DNA of 64,000 nucleotides, taken from a virus. The stretch lies in IMG/VR virus record IMGVR_UViG_3300027850_000169, positions 1-64,000 of that record; one strand, given 5' to 3'. The position numbers were made by a program, and so were the translations under genes. Below the pieces are notes generated by a model, which worked only from the letters and a program-made list of their open reading frames with translations, searched no databases and was not told where the DNA came from. This document shows, piece after piece, positions 11,607 to 55,523 of this stretch (position 1 is the stretch's first letter; every line of letters starts with the position of its first letter).

Positions 11607-12426
11607 TAGATACGACGCTCTGAAAAGATTACATTATTTGTTCAGTGACAAGAGGTGGATATTTGCTAAAACTATGCCGCAAAACCCGCATGAGTACACA
11701 TTGAGAAAGCACTGGAAAAACGAAGATGATTTCGTTGAAGCGGTTCAACTGATTCGAGATTATGGATATGTTATCAAGTTTCAAGGAAGAAAATATACTC
11801 AGTTTAACGTTCTAGGACATTTCTATTGGTCTATGGGTGCGCCGCTTCCCGTGACAATACTAATCAATCGAGCTTGTATTGATAAAGACGCAAAAGCTCC
11901 CTATGATGATATTTCTAATTCTTATGACGATTGGTTTTTAAAGCCAGAATACGAACGAGAGAACGTCAATCTTACAAAACTGCTAAAACCTTATATTGGC
12001 GGTAAACTTTTAGATGTTGGCTGCGGCACTGGGCTATTGCTTGATTTGTTAAACGTTTCTTTTGACTTGTATACAGGCGTTGACCCCAGCAGGATGATGC
12101 TAGACAAATTTAAAAATAAACATCCATGCCACAAAATCATTCAGTCTAAATATGAAGACTTTCCCTATGAAGGATTTGATTCAATTGTTTCGCTATACGG
12201 GTCTTTCAACTATTGTGAGCCGTCATCCGCAATTCAGGTAATTAATCAGTTGTCGCCAGGGGGTAAATATTTTTTAATGCTGTTTAAAGAAGATTATAAT
12301 CCCGTAACTCATAAATTAGCTAATTGTTCAATCCCTTACTATAAGCTAAGTAATTACAGCTTTCCAGTAGGAAGTGTTTTTGCCGAATTTACTAACTATA
12401 TCGTGGTAACGGGAGTCAAAGAATAA
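11593..12426 (+). CDS. Class I SAM-dependent methyltransferase with an extra ~95-aa N-terminal domain
   Basis: LLDVGCGTG, GVDPSRMML, LSPGGK; N-domain WIFAKTMPQNPHEY. Confidence 0.85.
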   Translation: MSTDNRYDALKRLHYLFSDKRWIFAKTMPQNPHEYTLRKHWKNEDDFVEAVQLIRDYGYVIKFQGRKYTQFNVLGHFYWSMGAPLPVTILINRACIDKDAKAPYDDISNSYDDWFLKPEYERENVNLTKLLKPYIGGKLLDVGCGTGLLLDLLNVSFDLYTGVDPSRMMLDKFKNKHPCHKIIQSKYEDFPYEGFDSIVSLYGSFNYCEPSSAIQVINQLSPGGKYFLMLFKEDYNPVTHKLANCSIPYYKLSNYSFPVGSVFAEFTNYIVVTGVKE

Positions 12427-13562
12427 TGCCTACCTATTACGGCAATAAGACCGTTTTTGAGATGGGCTTAGAGCGCATTGAATATTTGTTTGATGAGTTT
12501 GAAAATATTGCAGTTAATTTCTCAGGGGGGAAAGATTCAACAGTTACATTGAACTTAGCTTTAATGGTAGCGGAAAAAAAAGGAAGATTACCACTAAAAG
12601 TATTATTTATTGACCAAGAGGCTGAATGGGATTGCACTATTGATTACATGAAATCGGTAATGTACGACACTAGGATTGAGCCATACTGGTTCCAAATTCC
12701 CTTTAGAATTTTTAACGCTACTTGCAGCGAGGACCCCTGGCTAAATGCTTGGGACATCAACCCTGAAATTACATGGATTAGGGAAAAAGACCCTATTGCT
12801 ATTCACGAAAGCCCTGCAAAAACTGATAGATTTGAAAAGTTGTTTGATGATTTAGGGAACTGGATATTTAAAGGGAAGTCTTATGCCTATCTTTCTGGAG
12901 TCAGGTGTGAAGAATCACCCGCAAGGCGGGCGGGCTTGACGACCTTTGCGACCTATAAATGGATTACTTGGGGAAAAGTAGAGAATAAGAAGCGCAATCA
13001 ATTCGTTTTCTATCCGTTATACGACTGGTCTTATAAAGATATCTGGAAATCCATTCATGATAATAAATGGGAATATTGTGTTTTATATGATTATATGTAT
13101 CAGTACGGTATCTCACCTATAAAAATGAGATTGTCAAACGTCACCCATGAGACAGCCGTTGACAATTTATTCTTTCTTCAGGAAATTGAAGGGGATTTGT
13201 GGACAAGGTTAACACAAAGATTAAGGGGAATTAATACGGCTGGCATTCTAAAAGCTGACTGGAAATGTCCTAAAGAATTACCGTTTATGTTTGAAGATTG
13301 GCATGAGTATCGAGACTATTTATTAGAAAATTTAATAACAAATCAGAGTGTTAAAAAAATAATGCTCAAACAGGTAGAATCGGATAAAAGGCAATACATC
13401 CCAGAGATTCAAGATAAAGTCTGCAAGTATCATATTGATATGATTTTGAAAAATGATTATCATGGAACAAAAGCAACGACATTCGCAGCTTCTCATCTTA
13501 AAGAAAGAACAAATACAAACAGAGACCGTGAAAAAAGAGATAGAGAATTATTTAAAAAATAG
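12426..13562 (+). CDS. ibrA: PAPS-reductase-family protein, IbrA-like
   Basis: FSGGKDS PP-loop, FIDQEAE, GVRCEES, YPLYDW, KMRLS, EIEGDLW. Confidence 0.8.
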   Translation: MPTYYGNKTVFEMGLERIEYLFDEFENIAVNFSGGKDSTVTLNLALMVAEKKGRLPLKVLFIDQEAEWDCTIDYMKSVMYDTRIEPYWFQIPFRIFNATCSEDPWLNAWDINPEITWIREKDPIAIHESPAKTDRFEKLFDDLGNWIFKGKSYAYLSGVRCEESPARRAGLTTFATYKWITWGKVENKKRNQFVFYPLYDWSYKDIWKSIHDNKWEYCVLYDYMYQYGISPIKMRLSNVTHETAVDNLFFLQEIEGDLWTRLTQRLRGINTAGILKADWKCPKELPFMFEDWHEYRDYLLENLITNQSVKKIMLKQVESDKRQYIPEIQDKVCKYHIDMILKNDYHGTKATTFAASHLKERTNTNRDREKRDRELFKK

Positions 13563-40224: not shown

Positions 40225-41527
40225 TTGACATCCTCACCGACCTGAAGGCACGGTGATTCCTAAGACTCACAACTTAGGTTTCTGCTTCATAGCACCAGCC
40301 TTAACAGATTTACTCTGTTCAGGTCTTACAGTCGCTCCACAGACTGACACGGCAAGCCCTGCCGCCAAAATATTCTTTGCTGCATTGATATCTCGGTCAT
40401 GGTTTGTCCCACACTTAGGACACTCCCACTCTCGAATATTCAAAGGCAGCTTTTCCACAACGTGACCACAATGCCCACACATCTTAGAACTAGGAAACCA
40501 TCGGTCAATCTTGACAAAAGTACGACCATACCAGCCGCACTTGTATTGGAGTTGCCTGACCAGTTCCCCCCAGCTAGCATCACTGATAGCAAGGGCAAGT
40601 TTGTGGTTCTTGACCATATTCTTCACAACCAAATCCTCAACGGCGATGGTTTGGTTTTCACGCACCAGTCGAGTTGTCAGTTTGTGAAGAAAATCCTTTC
40701 TAGAGTCGCTAATTTCTTGGTGAACTCTAGCAACTTTAAGTCTAGCTTTGTGTCGATTGTTGCTACCTTTGACCTTGCGGGACAAACGCTTCTGGGCTTT
40801 CTTGAGCTTGCGACGTTTAGTTTTGAAGCATTTAGGGTTTGCAACTTTCTCGCCATTGCTCAGGGTAATCAAGCTAGTGATACCCAAATCCAAACCAATC
40901 TGATTAGTAGATTCTTGCCATGTTTCAATTTCAGTGTCAACCAACAAAGAAACAGTCCATCTTCCAGAGGGTGCAAGTTTTACTGTAATAGTAGATGGCT
41001 CAGTATCAGGTGGAATCTCCCGACTCCATCTGATATCCAACGGCTCAATACACTTTGCTAAGTAAACTTGTCCATCTTTCCACTTGAAAGCGGACTTGGT
41101 AAATTCTGCATTGCCACCATTATGCTTTTTCTTGAAGTTAGGGTATTTTGCCCGACCCGCAAAGAAGTTAGTAAAGGCGGATTGCAGATGCCTCAAGCCC
41201 TGCTGTACTGGCACACAGCTAACTTCGTTGAGAAATTGCAAGTCTTCTTGCTTTTTCCACTCGGTCAACATCGCAGAAGTTTCAGTGTATCCGACTCGCT
41301 CTTGCCTTTCATACCAAGCCTCCGTTCTAAGAGCAAGGGCTTTGTTGTAGACTAAACGAGCGCAACCCATCGTTCTTCTCAGCAAGTTTTCTTGCTCAGG
41401 AGTTGGATAGAATCGGTACTTGAATGCTTTCTGTGTCATACTTCACAGTATAGCATCTATTTCGTGAAAGTGTAAACTTTAATATAAAGCCGTCCTAGAA
41501 GGACGGGGTTTCAGACCTATTTTTGTA
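40225..41527 (-). mobile_element. tnpB-only IS200/IS605 (IS1341-type) element
   Basis: Target TCAT; LE guide GAAA at +16 plus ccgtcct/aggacgg hairpin; RE GAAT..hairpin..TCAA. Confidence 0.88.
40267..41439 (-). CDS. tnpB: RNA-guided endonuclease TnpB
   Basis: AFKYRFYPT HTH, GLDLG, AVEDL, CGHC/CPKC, DRDINAA. Confidence 0.97.
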   Translation of the reverse strand: MTQKAFKYRFYPTPEQENLLRRTMGCARLVYNKALALRTEAWYERQERVGYTETSAMLTEWKKQEDLQFLNEVSCVPVQQGLRHLQSAFTNFFAGRAKYPNFKKKHNGGNAEFTKSAFKWKDGQVYLAKCIEPLDIRWSREIPPDTEPSTITVKLAPSGRWTVSLLVDTEIETWQESTNQIGLDLGITSLITLSNGEKVANPKCFKTKRRKLKKAQKRLSRKVKGSNNRHKARLKVARVHQEISDSRKDFLHKLTTRLVRENQTIAVEDLVVKNMVKNHKLALAISDASWGELVRQLQYKCGWYGRTFVKIDRWFPSSKMCGHCGHVVEKLPLNIREWECPKCGTNHDRDINAAKNILAAGLAVSVCGATVRPEQSKSVKAGAMKQKPKL

Positions 41528-47124: not shown

Positions 47125-47258
47125 TTGACGCATTCTAATTAACCTGCTATAATTAAATCAATCGATACATTTACAGCAATTGCGGTGAGTAGCGGTTTTA
47201 GTGTGTTGTTTTCATGTGAAGTGGTTTTTATCCCAAGCCTGCGAAAGCGGGTTTTTTT
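47125..47258 (+). ncRNA. Candidate ~100-nt small RNA upstream of the CRISPR leader, promoter to terminator
   Basis: TTGACG-17-TATAAT with TG extension; terminator cctgc-GAAA-gcggg-T7; no ORF inside. Confidence 0.6.
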
Positions 47259-47272
47259 ATCAGAAAATTGGG

Positions 47273-47428
47273 TTGACAGGATTCGTATCTTCGATTAGAA
47301 TAGACTTAACCGAACCACGAAAACTAAATAATATTCAATCTTTCCATAACACTTTTGCAATTGCGGGAGTCGATTTGCCGCAACCCAGCCTTGAAAACTA
47401 GACGCACCAACGATTTCACACGTCGGCG
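47273..47428 (+). promoter_or_regulatory. CRISPR promoter and leader
   Basis: TTGACA-17-TAGAAT; two GAAAACTA leader motifs (aaccacgaaaacta, agccttgaaaacta). Confidence 0.75.
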
Positions 47429-48571
47429 GTCGCAATCAACGCCACTCCCTACTAGGGATTGAAACTTGTAGCGTTGCTGGGTAACAGCCATCTGGTAAGG
47501 TCGCAATCAACGCCACTCCCTACTAGGGATTGAAACTCGCTCAAGCCCTCAATTTTCCCAGCCGTTCCTCGTCACAATCAACGCCACTCCCTACTAGGGA
47601 TTGAAACTACGATTTAGCTTTCACGGCTGGCAACAATTTGTGTCACAATCAACGCCACTCCCTACTAGGGATTGAAACCTCGGATTTAAAGCAATTAATT
47701 CCTGTATCAATGGTCACAATCAACGCCACTCCCTACTAGGGATTGAAACCTCAAACATCGTTTTCATGACCAACAGCAATTTGTGTCGCAATCAAGCTCC
47801 ACTCCCTACTAGGGATTGAAACGCCGATTTTGTATTCAATTCTGTCGTTAAATTGAGTCGCAATCAAGCTCCACTCCCTACTAGGGATTGAAACTCTTGC
47901 CAAACAGCAGATTCTCAAACTGCATCCCGGTCGCAATCAAGCTCCACTCCCTACTAGGGATTGAAACGCCCGATTCAGCAACTGCTGGCGCTTCTCCCTC
48001 GTCACAATCAAGCTCCACTCCCTACTAGGGATTGAAACCGCTGGGATGAAAGCGCTAGCCCCCTACTAGGGATTGAAACACAATCGAGCTAAGCCCCTAC
48101 TAGGGATTGAAACCATGAGTGCAGAATAATCACAACCGACCGCTACTGCCGCAATCAAGCTAAACCTCTACTAGAGATTGAAACTGAGAAATTAAAAATG
48201 GCACAAAATACAACAATATCGCAATCAAACCAAACCCCTACTAGGGATTGAAACGCAATAAACCTAAACCCCTACTAGGGATTGAAACTTGCTCCTGTAG
48301 TCGGTGGCGGTGGAAGAAAGGCAGTCGCAATTGAGCTAAGCCCCTACTAGGGATTGAAACCTGATGTCAACTGTTCTTCACTAGCAGATACCGAGTCGCA
48401 ATTGAGCTAAGCCCCTACTAGGGATTGAAACGCAATCAAAGTAAACCCTACTAGGGATTGAAACAAACGAGAGTGCGACTTTAAGATTTACCACAATCTT
48501 GTCATAATCAAAGCAAACCCCTACTAGGGATTGAAGCGCAATAAACTCCACTCCCTACTAGGAATTAAAAC
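47429..48571 (+). CRISPR. CRISPR array: 19 repeat units, 13 full spacers (33-36 nt), 1 short spacer, 4 spacer-less junctions
   Basis: Repeat GTCRCAATCAACGCCACTCCCTACTAGGGATTGAAAC (37-38 nt) that degenerates away from the leader. Confidence 0.97.
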
Positions 48572-48579
48572 GAAAGATT

Positions 48580-50415
48580 TCACCGGGATAATAAATCTAT
48601 CCTTTTTGTTTTTGCCTGTAACGCCCACTTAGACAAACCAATTGAAACTTCCTTCTGTAGAAGTTCAAGGCTTAATTCGCCCCATTTTTTCGCTTTCTTT
48701 GTTGCTACCAATCCTGCGAACAGTGCTAGTTCATCGTTGACCGCCGCATTGATATCACGGTGACACTTCCAGCCGCAGGTACATTCATACAATTTAATTT
48801 TAGGGTCACTCATTGATGCCATCTTGTTTAGGCAGACTGGGCAAGTTTGCGAAGTGTAGGCAGCCGGATTTCTCAAAAAAGTACGTCCGTCACGTGCAGA
48901 TTTCTGTTCTAGTTGTGCAATGAAATCGCCGTGTCCCGCGTCAGATAACGACTTTGCCAACCCAGTTTTTTGAGCTTTCCGGTTTTTCTTGTAGCCACCT
49001 TTCTCTGTATCTTCTTGTGGCTTAGCTTGTGCTCGAAGATTTTGTGATTGCAGCCCGTTTTCACAGGAAATAAATTGATAGTTGGTTACAATCTCAGAGC
49101 TAAGCTTTTGGTTGAATCCCTTGCGTTGACGTTTAATCTTCTCGTGTAGTTTACTAATCCGATTCTGAATCTTTTTCTGTTCACTGGAAAGTGCTTGACA
49201 GTTCCACTTTAACTTTTGCCAGTACATCCCTCCGATTAGGGCAATACCTTCAGCTTCACTTTTGATTTCACAAAGCTTTTTGGCTTTGTCAGGCGAGCAA
49301 TTAATAAGAGCTTTGATGTCTTTGTGTCGCCGTTCAGGATGATTTAACCAGAGAATCAGTCGGTGAGTCATTTTGTTAGCTAGTTCTTTCTGAAGCTCCG
49401 CTAATTTAATTTGAGCGTTCCGGTAGTAACGCGGATTTCCGTACTGCTTGCCGTTGCTTAAACTGATAAAGCTGTCTAGTCCAGGGTCGATTCCTATCGA
49501 CTTAGTTGTTTGTTTAATGCGTCGCCCCCGAACCAATTCGCCCGTTAGTTGGACATAGAAGCCTGAAGCGTATTGACATATTTTGAAGGCGGCAATTTCT
49601 GGAATTGTGCCGTCTGGATTTTTCCACCGACGTGCTAGTCCTTTTAGCCGCAATTCACGAAGACCTGGTATACCTATTAGAGATTGAGAGTTTGCCTTGG
49701 GAACGATGACACCTTTTGGGTTGTTGTGAACCAGGGTTGCAACCTTGTCACGTCTGCGTTTAAACCGAGGCCGCCCCTTTTTTGCACCATTCTGAACCCC
49801 GGCTCTTGACTTTGTGTACTCTTGCCAGCTAGTATCCAATCCAGCAAGAACTCCAGAGCGAAACTTGTACGGCATTTCTGTCATGAATTCGCGGTGTGCT
49901 GTTAGGTTGTTTCCTTTGATGACTTGACCTAACCCGCCCGCCTGTTGCAAACCCGGCTTAGAAATCAACGTTTCGCTGAAATCAACCGACAAAGGGCAAC
50001 TGTAACCAGTAACCGACCCATGTTCTGAGTTCTGCCAGCCCCAAGATTCTTTCTTCTCTGCTGGCTGCGGAACTTTTACCCGCTTCAACTCTCGGATATA
50101 CCAATGAGACTTATCATCGTAAATGACACTGTAGGGCGCTTGGATTATTGACTTACCTTTGTCTTTTGAAACGATTGCACCTTCCTCATCTACAAAGTGA
50201 CTCCAATACTTCCAAGGTAATCGACAGCATGGAGCGTACCCGCCACTCTCTTTACCATCTAAACCGTTCGTAGCTTTGTAGTAGTAATAATTTGTTTCAA
50301 AATCTTCTAAGGCTGACAATCCACAATTCCACACAGACTTAGAAATTTGCAACCACTTTTCTATTTTTTCTTTCTGTTCAAGAGATGGAAAACATTTAAA
50401 TTCTAGTGTGAGCAT
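48580..50415 (-). CDS. c2c8: CRISPR-associated TnpB-derived type V effector, C2c8 (V-U2)-like, 611 aa
   Basis: Start MLTLEFK; PCC, PRFK.RRDKV.TLV, RuvC-I GIDPG, HEKI.RQRKG.N, RuvC-II ISCEN, AKP...GYKKN...K.GL, TSQTCPVC, RuvC-III HRDINAA; stop codon 8 bp from the array. Confidence 0.75.
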   Translation of the reverse strand: MLTLEFKCFPSLEQKEKIEKWLQISKSVWNCGLSALEDFETNYYYYKATNGLDGKESGGYAPCCRLPWKYWSHFVDEEGAIVSKDKGKSIIQAPYSVIYDDKSHWYIRELKRVKVPQPAEKKESWGWQNSEHGSVTGYSCPLSVDFSETLISKPGLQQAGGLGQVIKGNNLTAHREFMTEMPYKFRSGVLAGLDTSWQEYTKSRAGVQNGAKKGRPRFKRRRDKVATLVHNNPKGVIVPKANSQSLIGIPGLRELRLKGLARRWKNPDGTIPEIAAFKICQYASGFYVQLTGELVRGRRIKQTTKSIGIDPGLDSFISLSNGKQYGNPRYYRNAQIKLAELQKELANKMTHRLILWLNHPERRHKDIKALINCSPDKAKKLCEIKSEAEGIALIGGMYWQKLKWNCQALSSEQKKIQNRISKLHEKIKRQRKGFNQKLSSEIVTNYQFISCENGLQSQNLRAQAKPQEDTEKGGYKKNRKAQKTGLAKSLSDAGHGDFIAQLEQKSARDGRTFLRNPAAYTSQTCPVCLNKMASMSDPKIKLYECTCGWKCHRDINAAVNDELALFAGLVATKKAKKWGELSLELLQKEVSIGLSKWALQAKTKRIDLLSR

Positions 50416-50474
50416 AATTGAAAATCTTTTGCAAAGGGCTTTACAAACCCAGTATATCATGTTATCTTAGTAAT

Positions 50475-50668
50475 ATAAAGGTAGGGAGCTTTCACCCCAT
50501 TACCTGTGAGCTTTGACTCAAGAAAGCGAGTGTAGCGAAAGCAGCTTGAAGCTAGTCGTAAGACAGCAATCCTGAAAAATCGAAAGATGCGGGGAAACCC
50601 AAACAGGATAATTATCTAGTAGGGCAAAAGAGTGGGAGTAATCTCGCTCTTTTGTTTTGGATTGAAAC
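50475..50668 (+). ncRNA. Candidate tracr/omega-like scaffold RNA ending in the CRISPR repeat 3' end
   Basis: TTTACA-17-TATCTT (TG-extended) promoter; five GNRA hairpins; anti-repeat CTAGTAGGG; terminal GGATTGAAAC. Confidence 0.7.
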
Positions 50669-50694
50669 TGAAATTGAAATTGAAATTGAATATC

Positions 50695-50723
50695 TTGACA
50701 AGATTAACAGTATCGTTTATAAT
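50695..50723 (+). promoter_or_regulatory. Consensus sigma70 promoter
   Basis: TTGACA-17-TATAAT. Confidence 0.85.
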
Positions 50724-53906: not shown

Positions 53907-55523
53907 ATGACATTAACACCTCGAACAGTTCCAGAATTAATTGCAGAAATTGATATCCTTACCTCTGAAATTCAAGAATTGTATTTGCAGGGAAATCCAT
54001 TCGTTGTTGGATGGAGTGGAGGCAAAGATAGCACAACCGTGCTTCAACTTATATGGAATGCTATTAAGCGACTACCAAAAGAACAGCGCAAATACCCTCT
54101 TTATGTGATTACTAATGACACTTTAGTTGAAAATCCAATTATTTCCGCCCATGTTAGGAATGCTTTGAAGTTGATAGATGCGGCAGCAAAAGAGCAAAAT
54201 ATACCTGTTATGACTAAAATGACAACCCCTGAAATAAAGAATTCTTTTTGGGTTTGTTTAATTGGGAAAGGTTATGCCGCACCACGACAAGGGTTTCGTT
54301 GGTGTACTGACAAGCTTAAAATTAGACCCGCTGAAAAATTTATCAACGAAGTGGTTACAATCGAAGGTCAAATGATACTTGCTCTTGGTGTTCGAGAGGC
54401 TGAAAGTGCGACGCGAGCTGCGAGTATGGAAAAACAACGTGAATTTAAAGTAAGTGAAAGATTAAATAAGAATCAACTACACGTTGGTTCACTTACTTAC
54501 AGTCCAATTCGGAGTTGGCGCACGGATGAAGTCTGGCTTTATTTAATGCAGTACGAAAATCCTTGGGGATGCGACAACAAGGATTTGTTTGCAATATATC
54601 GAGGCGCAACAGCGGATAACGAATGCCCTCTAGTTGTTGATGCTTCCACTCCTAGTTGCGGAAGTTCTCGTTTTGGTTGCTGGACGTGTACTCTTGTATC
54701 TAAAGACAAGTCTACAGAAGCAATGATTCAAAACGATGAAGACAAAGAATGGATGCAGGTTCTACTTGATATTCGCAATGAGTTAGATGTTCGTGATGAC
54801 GAAGGAAAACACGCTGACCATGACAAAAGAGACTGGAAAGGCAACTCAGGAAAAGTAAGGTTTTACACTAAATTTTACAATGCGAGGGAAGAAGATAATT
54901 CTACTATGCTTAAGCCTGTTCCAGGGCCCTACATCAAATTTTGGCGAGAACACTGGCTGAGGCGAGTCTTGGAAGCACAAACTCAAATACGCAAAACCGC
55001 ACCAGAAGAAATGCGCGACATCACCTTAATCACCCCAGAAGAACTTAGCGAAATCCGCCGCATTTGGAGAGAAGAGAAACACGAATTTGACGATAGTTTG
55101 CCCCGGATTTACGAACAGGCTACAGGAGAGTCGTTTGCAGACATTTCTTGTACAGATGAACGAAACGCTTTGGGTAAAGAAGAATGGGATATCTTGTCTG
55201 AAATATGCGAAGAAGATGAAACGCATTTTCACTTGATAGCAAGCCTCCTCAACGAAACAAATAAAACACATTTAAAGACGCGCCGCAAAGATGTATTCAA
55301 AGCATTGGAAAAATGCTTTGACGCTAATTCCCGCTCTATGGAGGAAGCGGTTGCAAGCAGTCATGAAAAAAACAAGTTGACCAAGACTGTTGAATCCGTA
55401 AAAAAAGAAGGTCTTGGCGAACTCAATAAAGTTAAACAAATGTTAAACAAAGATACTCCCAATAGCAAACAGCTTTCTTGGGCTGACGTTAAATTCGCAC
55501 CGTCTGTCGAACAATTACAATAA
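53907..55523 (+). CDS. dndC: DNA phosphorothioation sulfurtransferase DndC
   Basis: WSGGKDS, DTLVENP, FWVCLIGKGY.AP..FRWCT..LKI.P, ECPLVVD.STPSCG.SRFGCWTCT. Confidence 0.9.
   Translation: MTLTPRTVPELIAEIDILTSEIQELYLQGNPFVVGWSGGKDSTTVLQLIWNAIKRLPKEQRKYPLYVITNDTLVENPIISAHVRNALKLIDAAAKEQNIPVMTKMTTPEIKNSFWVCLIGKGYAAPRQGFRWCTDKLKIRPAEKFINEVVTIEGQMILALGVREAESATRAASMEKQREFKVSERLNKNQLHVGSLTYSPIRSWRTDEVWLYLMQYENPWGCDNKDLFAIYRGATADNECPLVVDASTPSCGSSRFGCWTCTLVSKDKSTEAMIQNDEDKEWMQVLLDIRNELDVRDDEGKHADHDKRDWKGNSGKVRFYTKFYNAREEDNSTMLKPVPGPYIKFWREHWLRRVLEAQTQIRKTAPEEMRDITLITPEELSEIRRIWREEKHEFDDSLPRIYEQATGESFADISCTDERNALGKEEWDILSEICEEDETHFHLIASLLNETNKTHLKTRRKDVFKALEKCFDANSRSMEEAVASSHEKNKLTKTVESVKKEGLGELNKVKQMLNKDTPNSKQLSWADVKFAPSVEQLQ

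Follow-up and report, generated by a model that had tools for sequence, protein, structure and literature searches.

A probable tracrRNA carrying a repeat end of its own beside the C2c8/V-U2 effector of a cyanophage

A structured RNA gene located next to a Cas12 gene in a cyanophage genome, and oriented divergently from it, is quite probably the tracrRNA of a type V system (C2c8/V-U2 family) carried by the phage. This assignment is based on the position of the gene (~50476-50668), on its fold, on its complementarity to the repeat of the adjoining CRISPR array, and on the covariation and conservation displayed by homologous RNAs beside related effectors. The tracrRNA of this Cas12 system was previously unrecognised, and in the literature consulted V-U2/C2c8 is still listed as uncharacterised and devoid of a tracrRNA (PMC11641405). 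A conserved tracrRNA family upstream of C2c8 effectors would represent the missing part for a reconstitution from a ~610-aa nuclease, a ~190-nt RNA and a 37-nt repeat, and the phage carries a complete-looking effector module.

In the mechanism proposed for this system, the RNA would be transcribed divergently from the effector gene and would fold into a multi-hairpin scaffold, in which the UUUC loop of the first hairpin would pair with the GAAA at the 3' end of the crRNA repeat to form a pseudoknot, and a split anti-repeat would pair with the conserved 3' half of the repeat. The RuvC-intact effector, associated with this dual RNA, would cut DNA matching the spacers of the array. The last hairpin would correspond to the structural or terminator end of the RNA, and the GGATTGAAAC motif located behind it to a retained repeat end. 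Owing to this retained end, read-through transcripts would be laid out as single guides. Behind the repeat end, this phage has a slippage tract and then the next promoter, without a specific guide.

Phage setting, effector and array

The DNA analysed, hereafter the window, is a 64,000-nt stretch of the 91.7-kb IMG/VR virus record IMGVR_UViG_3300027850_000169. It contains genes for a tail tape-measure protein, a P22-type coat protein, a Bro-N protein and a DndC homologue, and the carrier of the CRISPR-Cas12 system is a cyanophage. The features of the locus, with the basis of each in brackets, are as follows:

47429-48038, plus strand: CRISPR array of nine full 37-nt repeats ending in GGATTGAAAC, with spacers of ~34-36 nt (repeat search, direct reading)
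48039-48570, plus strand: degenerate array tail of truncated repeat units, some of them spacerless (read directly)
48580-50415, minus strand: effector of 611 aa, a Cas12 of the C2c8/V-U2 family (NCBIfam NF038192, RuvC residues)
50440-50479, both strands: overlapping divergent promoter-like sites, for the RNA on the plus and the effector on the minus strand (consensus matches only)
~50476-50668, plus strand: probable tracrRNA gene, ~193 nt (5' end placed from the -10 box; 3' end putative)
50480-50504, plus strand: 5' hairpin with the loop CUUUCA at 50489-50494 (predicted pseudoknot partner of the repeat's UGAAA)
50616-50638, plus strand: split anti-repeat made of CTAGTAGGG (50616-50624), a CAAAA bulge and GAGTGGGAG (50630-50638) (complementarity to the repeat)
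50625-50658, plus strand: terminal hairpin of 13 bp with a GTAA loop, then TTTT, terminator-like (fold; compensatory changes in L013)
50659-50668, plus strand: solo repeat 3' end GGATTGAAAC (no further copy except in the array; GGGATTGAAAG at the same place in L013)
50669-50690, plus strand: (ATTGAA)n slippage tract, the would-be guide (length-polymorphic, absent from relatives)
50695-50723, plus strand: promoter of the next operon, a perfect TTGACA-17-TATAAT (consensus match)

The effector, whose ATG at 50415 coincides with the start of the database protein P0001, scores 394.6 bits on the NF038192 model (type V C2c8, V-U2) against a cut-off of 350, and the RuvC acidic residues D310, E452 and D554 are conserved in its alignment with 22 relatives (alignment A1). 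It thus appears from its sequence as a RuvC-intact, active-looking nuclease. A search by sequence and predicted fold identified Cas12p (9jg3/9jfs) as the nearest solved fold, with 62 bits over the C-terminal 157 residues, 17-18% identity and TM values of 0.51-0.58; as the match is so distant, membership of the Cas12p (V-P) family was ruled out. No match to cas1, cas2 or cas4 occurred among the neighbouring ORFs scanned, in agreement with the description of V-U2 systems as being without adaptation genes. With a family model passed, a RuvC triad and an adjoining array, the system is classified by its sequence as type V-U2 (C2c8). The array and the effector gene are convergent, the former on the plus and the latter on the minus strand.

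With respect to other genes, no tnsB/tnsC/tniQ-like gene was found among the ORFs scanned in the window. An ordinary TnpB of the IS200/IS605 type (390 aa, 40267-41439, minus strand), distinct from the Cas12 effector and scoring 408 bits on the IS200_TnpB model, occurs 7 kb from the CRISPR cassette. The DndC homologue is full-length (53907-55523, plus strand; 592 bits), and a second PAPS-reductase/DUF3440 protein is encoded at 12426-13562 on the plus strand; among the other ORFs scanned, no Dnd family match was obtained. Neither a megablast of the locus against phages, nor a tblastn of the effector against GenBank phages and PLSDB plasmids, nor IMG/VR scans with the effector relatives P0008 and P0009 returned any match.

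The RNA gene, its homologues and its pairing with the repeat

The RNA gene starts 61 nt from the effector start, and the promoter-like sites of the two genes consist of TTTACA-17-TATCTT (50440-50468) on the plus strand and TTTATA-17-TATACT (50479-50451) on the minus strand, each of them matching the consensus at 9/12 positions. An overlap between the promoter of the RNA and that of the effector had been proposed from the letters of the DNA alone, hereafter the sequence-only reading, and is borne out at the level of consensus matches only. RNAfold gives the RNA a predicted energy of -60.1 kcal/mol (z = -2.72; 3/200 shuffles fold as well). Its minimum-energy fold recovers the helices listed in that reading, all of them at the expected places, namely the hairpins aggta/tacct (with the CUUUCA loop), tgag/ctca, gc-GAAA-gc and gtc-GTAA-gac, a three-way junction atcctg/caggat enclosing atc-GAAA-gat and ggg-GAAA-ccc, and the long terminal stem CAAAAGAGTGGGA-GTAA-TCTCGCTCTTTTG (50625-50654), whose 5' arm overlaps the second anti-repeat segment. 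At the Rfam gathering thresholds, the whole window yielded zero matches.

Loci with homologous effectors were gathered from cyanobacterial genomes, metagenomes and viral contigs, the comparison not extending to the contigs that encode the closer relatives P0002-P0010 (44-87% identity). A structured RNA gene beside the effector, as anticipated by the sequence-only reading, recurs there: homologous RNAs occupy the same position in eight other lineages (L003, L004, L005/6/8, L009, L011, L013, L023 and, less clearly, L007), where a sigma-70-like promoter, a structured RNA of 125-280 nt and, near the 3' end of this RNA, an anti-repeat to the repeat of the same locus succeed one another upstream of the effector and on the opposite strand. 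The z-scores of the folds amount to -5.56 (L013), -2.98 (L004), -4.66 (L003), -2.31 (L023), -7.47 (L011) and -1.99 (L005). As the nine divergent RNAs could not be aligned by MAFFT and RNAalifold, their modules were compared from individual folds; those in common are a first hairpin with a UUUC loop, a GUGUAGC...GCAGC hairpin, a hairpin before the anti-repeat, the anti-repeat itself and a terminal hairpin. The terminal stems differ wholly in sequence between the loci and keep their pairing. The regions upstream of L014 and of the classical short C2c8 loci L019-L021 showed no recognisable tracrRNA; in L014, many copies of a CTTCCGATC-like motif, spaced by 25-40 nt, occur there instead (L014:2980-3490, minus strand).

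A location beside the effector and outside the array, and an anti-repeat directed to the repeat of the same system, are two of the attributes of a type V tracrRNA, and both are found here. The segments CTAGTAGGG and GAGTGGGAG are complementary to the CTCCACTC-CCTACTAG part of the repeat, the longest ungapped helix comprising 10 bp and the second segment 6-8 bp, which agrees with the bulged complementary arm described in the sequence-only reading. In the related phage loci L010/L012, whose effectors are 98-99% identical to that of the window, the repeats read CCCTATCAG versus CCCTACTAG in the window, and the anti-repeat reads CTGGTAGGG versus CTAGTAGGG. The A-to-G change at 50618, found in L010/L012 and in a contig from another sample (X2), matches a T-to-C change in their repeats and thereby restores a pair that the window version would lose. 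The second anti-repeat segment does not fit the repeats of the L010-type arrays. Since the anti-repeat matches the array repeat, the RNA could serve as a tracrRNA in trans, a proposal of the sequence-only reading to which the compensatory change lends further weight. Most homologous loci exhibit an anti-repeat that pairs with positions 17-32 of their own repeat; these anti-repeats were read in L003, L008, L011, L023 and L005/L006, and by eye only in L004, L007 and L009.

The predicted pseudoknot finds support in covariation, the loop motif (C/G)UUUC tracking the last base of the repeat in 8/9 lineages. Repeats ending in GAAAG coexist with CUUUC loops in L003, L004, L011 and L013, and those ending in GAAAC with GUUUC loops in L005/6/8, L007, L009 and L023. 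The window lineage is the exception, with a GAAAC repeat end and a CUUUCA loop, which still allow a UUUCA:UGAAA pairing. The covariation was tabulated by hand from the individual folds, and the independent covarying events are few, at least two. In Cas12p, the tracrRNA forms a pseudoknot with the last bases of the repeat, an arrangement called general for Cas12 tracrRNAs (bioRxiv 10.1101/2025.01.20.633832). The pairing of the UUUCA loop with the repeat's GAAA, suggested from the window alone, is consequently well founded as a prediction, even though the window lineage departs from the strict covariation.

In this respect, the RNA resembles the tracrRNAs of the V-K (Cas12k) and V-P (Cas12p) systems (PMC12416283; bioRxiv 10.1101/2025.01.20.633832), which consist of a long multi-stem RNA encoded beside the effector, with an anti-repeat directed to the 3' half of the 37-nt repeat and a 5'-proximal UUUC/GUUU element that pairs, in the present RNA by prediction, with the terminal GAAA(C/G) of the repeat. 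Similarly to V-K systems, the cyanobacterial repeats end in GATTGAAA(C/G), and the phage association recalls Cas12p (the "Cas12 hacker"), a phage-associated miniature Cas12 that uses a 185-nt tracrRNA. In contrast, the V-K tracrRNA is located downstream of cas12k and in the same direction, whereas the RNA of the window and of its relatives is located upstream and divergent; moreover, unlike Cas12k, the effector is RuvC-intact. A built-in repeat end is undescribed for V-K or Cas12p.

The repeat end and the would-be guide

In the 64-kb window, GGATTGAAAC occurs in 17 copies, all on the plus strand, against a chance expectation of 0.15; 16 belong to the array, and the one at 50659-50668 is the sole copy outside it. 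Because the RNA ends, as the sequence-only reading had noticed, in these last ten letters of the repeat, it resembles a natural single-guide RNA. A similarity of the 3' arm of the terminal hairpin to the variant repeat of L004 was also considered and found not significant (337/2000 shuffles score as well), so that only the last 10 nt are called repeat-derived. A repeat end occurs at the same place in L013, whose effector, only 43% identical, belongs to the sister clade at a tree path of 1.76 changes per site, and where the RNA ends with an anti-repeat-like CCUAGAAGAG, a hairpin CAAAACCCUCGG-AAAU-UCCGGGGGUUUUG, a U-rich linker and GGGAUUGAAAG. Between the two loci, the terminal stem has changed on both sides with compensation and the repeat end has been kept. 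Judging from this comparison, selection probably acts on the repeat end in the window/L013 clade. The RNA of L004 continues directly into a mini-array with a repeat type of its own, which comprises two identical variant repeats of 37 nt and a spacer of 35 nt between them (L004:3076-3184, minus strand) and is located ~300 nt from the main array of 33 repeats. No repeat end occurs behind the terminal hairpin in six lineages (L003, L005/6/8, L009, L011, L023), and the fused end is patchy on the effector tree.

That the RNA is a working natural single guide, of the omegaRNA type, seems to us rather unlikely. According to this reading, the repeat end of a read-through RNA would complete the scaffold in cis and the adjacent DNA would act as a guide for regulation, cassette homing or a fixed target, alongside the role of tracrRNA in trans. 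The succession of anti-repeat, GNRA loop, complementary arm and repeat end is indeed the layout of engineered type V single guides, and the repeat end has been preserved in L013 and stands, in L004, at the head of two repeat-spacer units. In addition, the guide RNA resolved in Cas12p includes no more of the repeat than its last 10 nt (bioRxiv 10.1101/2025.01.20.633832), from which it follows that the tracrRNA and these 10 nt would make a complete scaffold, on paper. Against this reading stand the six lineages devoid of a repeat end and the U tract behind the hairpin, as a result of which many transcripts may stop before the repeat end. Moreover, the cis fold is predicted to engage some of the anti-repeat in pairing with the repeat end, beside the terminal hairpin (AUCUA with UGGAU for the window, UCCUA with UGGGA for L013), which would amount to a register shift with respect to a crRNA.

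The same predicted folds, together with the complementarity between the loop UUUCA and the UGAAA of the same RNA, speak for a cis-acting mimic, in which the pseudoknot loop and some of the anti-repeat would be taken up by the repeat end as long as no crRNA displaces it, so that it would either stabilise the free tracrRNA or limit the loading of the effector. This reading appears highly improbable, its basis being a thermodynamic prediction only, and it shares the termination problem of a single guide. We know of no such mechanism for type V tracrRNAs.

The would-be guide was described in the sequence-only reading as a low-complexity run, and a 6-nt tandem repeat is indeed called at 50661-50690, after GAAAC. 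The homology with close relatives stops directly after GAAAC-T. In L010/L012 and the X2 contig, the DNA is near-identical up to GAAAC-T, continues with a 4.2-kb cassette and becomes homologous again at GAATATCTTGACA (50688); the insertion in X2 between window positions 50669 and 50688 comprises 4204 letters, and the window phage has no such cassette here. This is the deazaguanine cassette of these relatives. Its genes specify GTP cyclohydrolase I, QueD, QueC and a DpdA-like transglycosylase (L012:430-3248, plus strand), a content which suggests a 7-deazaguanine DNA-modification module, and the stop codon of its last gene abuts the repeat end. Such an exact stop of homology is expected at the end of an omegaRNA scaffold and favours a single guide, but the same point marks the limit between gene cassettes in a phage region that is mosaic. 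The guide region is unrelated between 98%-identical systems and consists, in the window, of a variable-length (ATTGAA)n tract. The tract is shorter in L029 and in the X4 contig. From its sequence, the "guide" of the window arose by slippage of ATTGAA at the junction, and next to it comes the -35 box of a promoter shared by all these phages. This TTGACA-17-TATAAT promoter lies outside the RNA module and is kept in related phages whether or not they possess the CRISPR cassette.

Depending on the related phage, whole cassettes are present or absent: L028 is devoid of the whole CRISPR cassette (47258-50687), L026 possesses the array without effector or RNA, and L029 has kept the array and an intact tracrRNA but has lost the final C of the repeat end, with its effector truncated (N-terminal part only). 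The region thus corresponds to a cassette mosaic, in which the CRISPR cassette ends with the repeat end, and the cassette appears from these comparisons as an accessory unit that is gained, lost and decaying. Consistent with such a mosaic, the repeat end could be a functionless scar, left by the first repeat of a former tracrRNA-then-array layout or by the repeat recombination that moves cassettes. The layout of L004 and L007, with the array behind the tracrRNA and co-oriented with it, the exchange of whole cassettes at the junction, the decay in L029, where the effector is truncated too, and the six lineages that manage without a repeat end all agree with this reading, which we nevertheless hold to be unlikely: a neutral remnant of 10-11 nt would hardly have been kept at the same place, behind a wholly changed stem, between effectors as divergent as those of the window and L013.

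None of the guides derived from the flanks found a target. The flank of the window returned only self matches in the phage genome. The spacers of the L004 mini-array found, in their own genome of 6.6 Mb, self matches and one match each with three mismatches (~0.4 expected by chance), and the 17-mer of the L010 flank found one exact match, consistent with chance, in an unrelated 84.7-kb viral contig showing neither homology to these phages nor a GTN before the match. Homing by the window guide was considered and rejected: the cassette-free L028 has no (ATTGAA)n tract, so that the guide finds no seed match there. A two-mode Cas12, using the RNA in trans as tracrRNA for the array crRNAs and in cis as an omegaRNA-like guide taken from cassette-adjacent DNA, is quite unlikely; if it were true, the cassette could recognise, cut or home into rival genomes without the cassette.

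The omegaRNA-like fused guide, the central proposal of the sequence-only reading, is plausible at most: the layout is there, with the repeat end kept in L013, whereas the unconserved guide, the U tract and the six lineages without a repeat end speak against a functional fusion. The position differs as well, omegaRNAs overlapping the 3' end of the nuclease gene at the right end of a transposon, while this RNA precedes the gene in divergent orientation. The cassette shows no apparent transposon ends, and its other side is syntenic in relatives. The RNA might represent a snapshot of the split of omegaRNA into tracrRNA and crRNA, but its fused end is patchy on the tree, and the reverse course has been proposed for RpoE-associated TnpBs, in which half of a repeat would have become fused again to a tracrRNA (PMC10691335). 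More recent work describes transposon-CRISPR intermediates that bear on this split (Jin et al., Cell 2025, as cited in PMC13565253).

Related systems and motifs at the effector start

Partial precedents for a natural single guide exist. In the tracr-L of the type II-A system of Streptococcus pyogenes (bioRxiv 10.1101/2020.05.21.102756; PMC10120712), a repeat-like segment folds on the anti-repeat, as predicted here in silico. The polarity is mirrored, the type V guide being at the 3' end; moreover, tracr-L possesses a conserved 11-nt guide that matches and represses the cas9 promoter, whereas in the present system the guide position is unconserved, differing between 98%-identical relatives, and a matching target, in particular in a promoter of the system, was not found. 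The inactivated RpoE-associated TnpBs also possess a type V scaffold RNA joined to a repeat 3' end (PMC10691335), and the TranC transposon-CRISPR intermediates embody the idea of an interconversion between omegaRNA and tracrRNA plus crRNA (Jin et al., Cell 2025, as cited in PMC13565253). Those systems have either lost the array or are borne by transposons, whereas a full array, an active-looking nuclease and a fused end coexist on the phage; in addition, the RNA is not located at the 3' end of the effector gene. If working, the built-in repeat end would make the RNA a natural single guide of type V in a system that also possesses an array, and would bear on the interconversion of omegaRNA and dual guides.

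The truncated repeat-spacer units of V-K CAST (bioRxiv 10.1101/2021.02.06.429022) similarly correspond to a partial repeat outside the regular array of a cyanobacterial type V system. These units keep the tracrRNA-pairing part of the repeat and a 17-bp spacer which matches a tRNA attachment site with a GTN PAM. Such a unit was rejected as an explanation here: only the last 10 nt are repeat-like, they are covalently linked to the tracrRNA, and a matching target was not found in the searches made. The locus also resembles the "type V-U2" locus of the cyanophage vB_AphaS-CL131, where a CRISPR array adjoins a TnpB-like effector and no tracrRNA was reported (PMC6293099). The phage of the window, with its 91.7 kb, is a different one, and a contig of CL131 size appeared in the protein search with only a distant TnpB-like protein of 399 aa (P0027).

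In several loci, a second motif resembling the repeat end occurs within ~20 nt of the effector start codon, e.g., CTAGGGATTGAAGG in L013 (2249-2262, minus strand), TTGATTGAAAC in L007 (3288-3298, minus strand) and, in the Lyngbya loci, TAATTAGAGATTGAAC on the effector strand (L005:3466-3480, plus strand); the window possesses only ATTGAAAA at 50416-50433. These copies might link the repeat or the tracrRNA to the expression of the effector.
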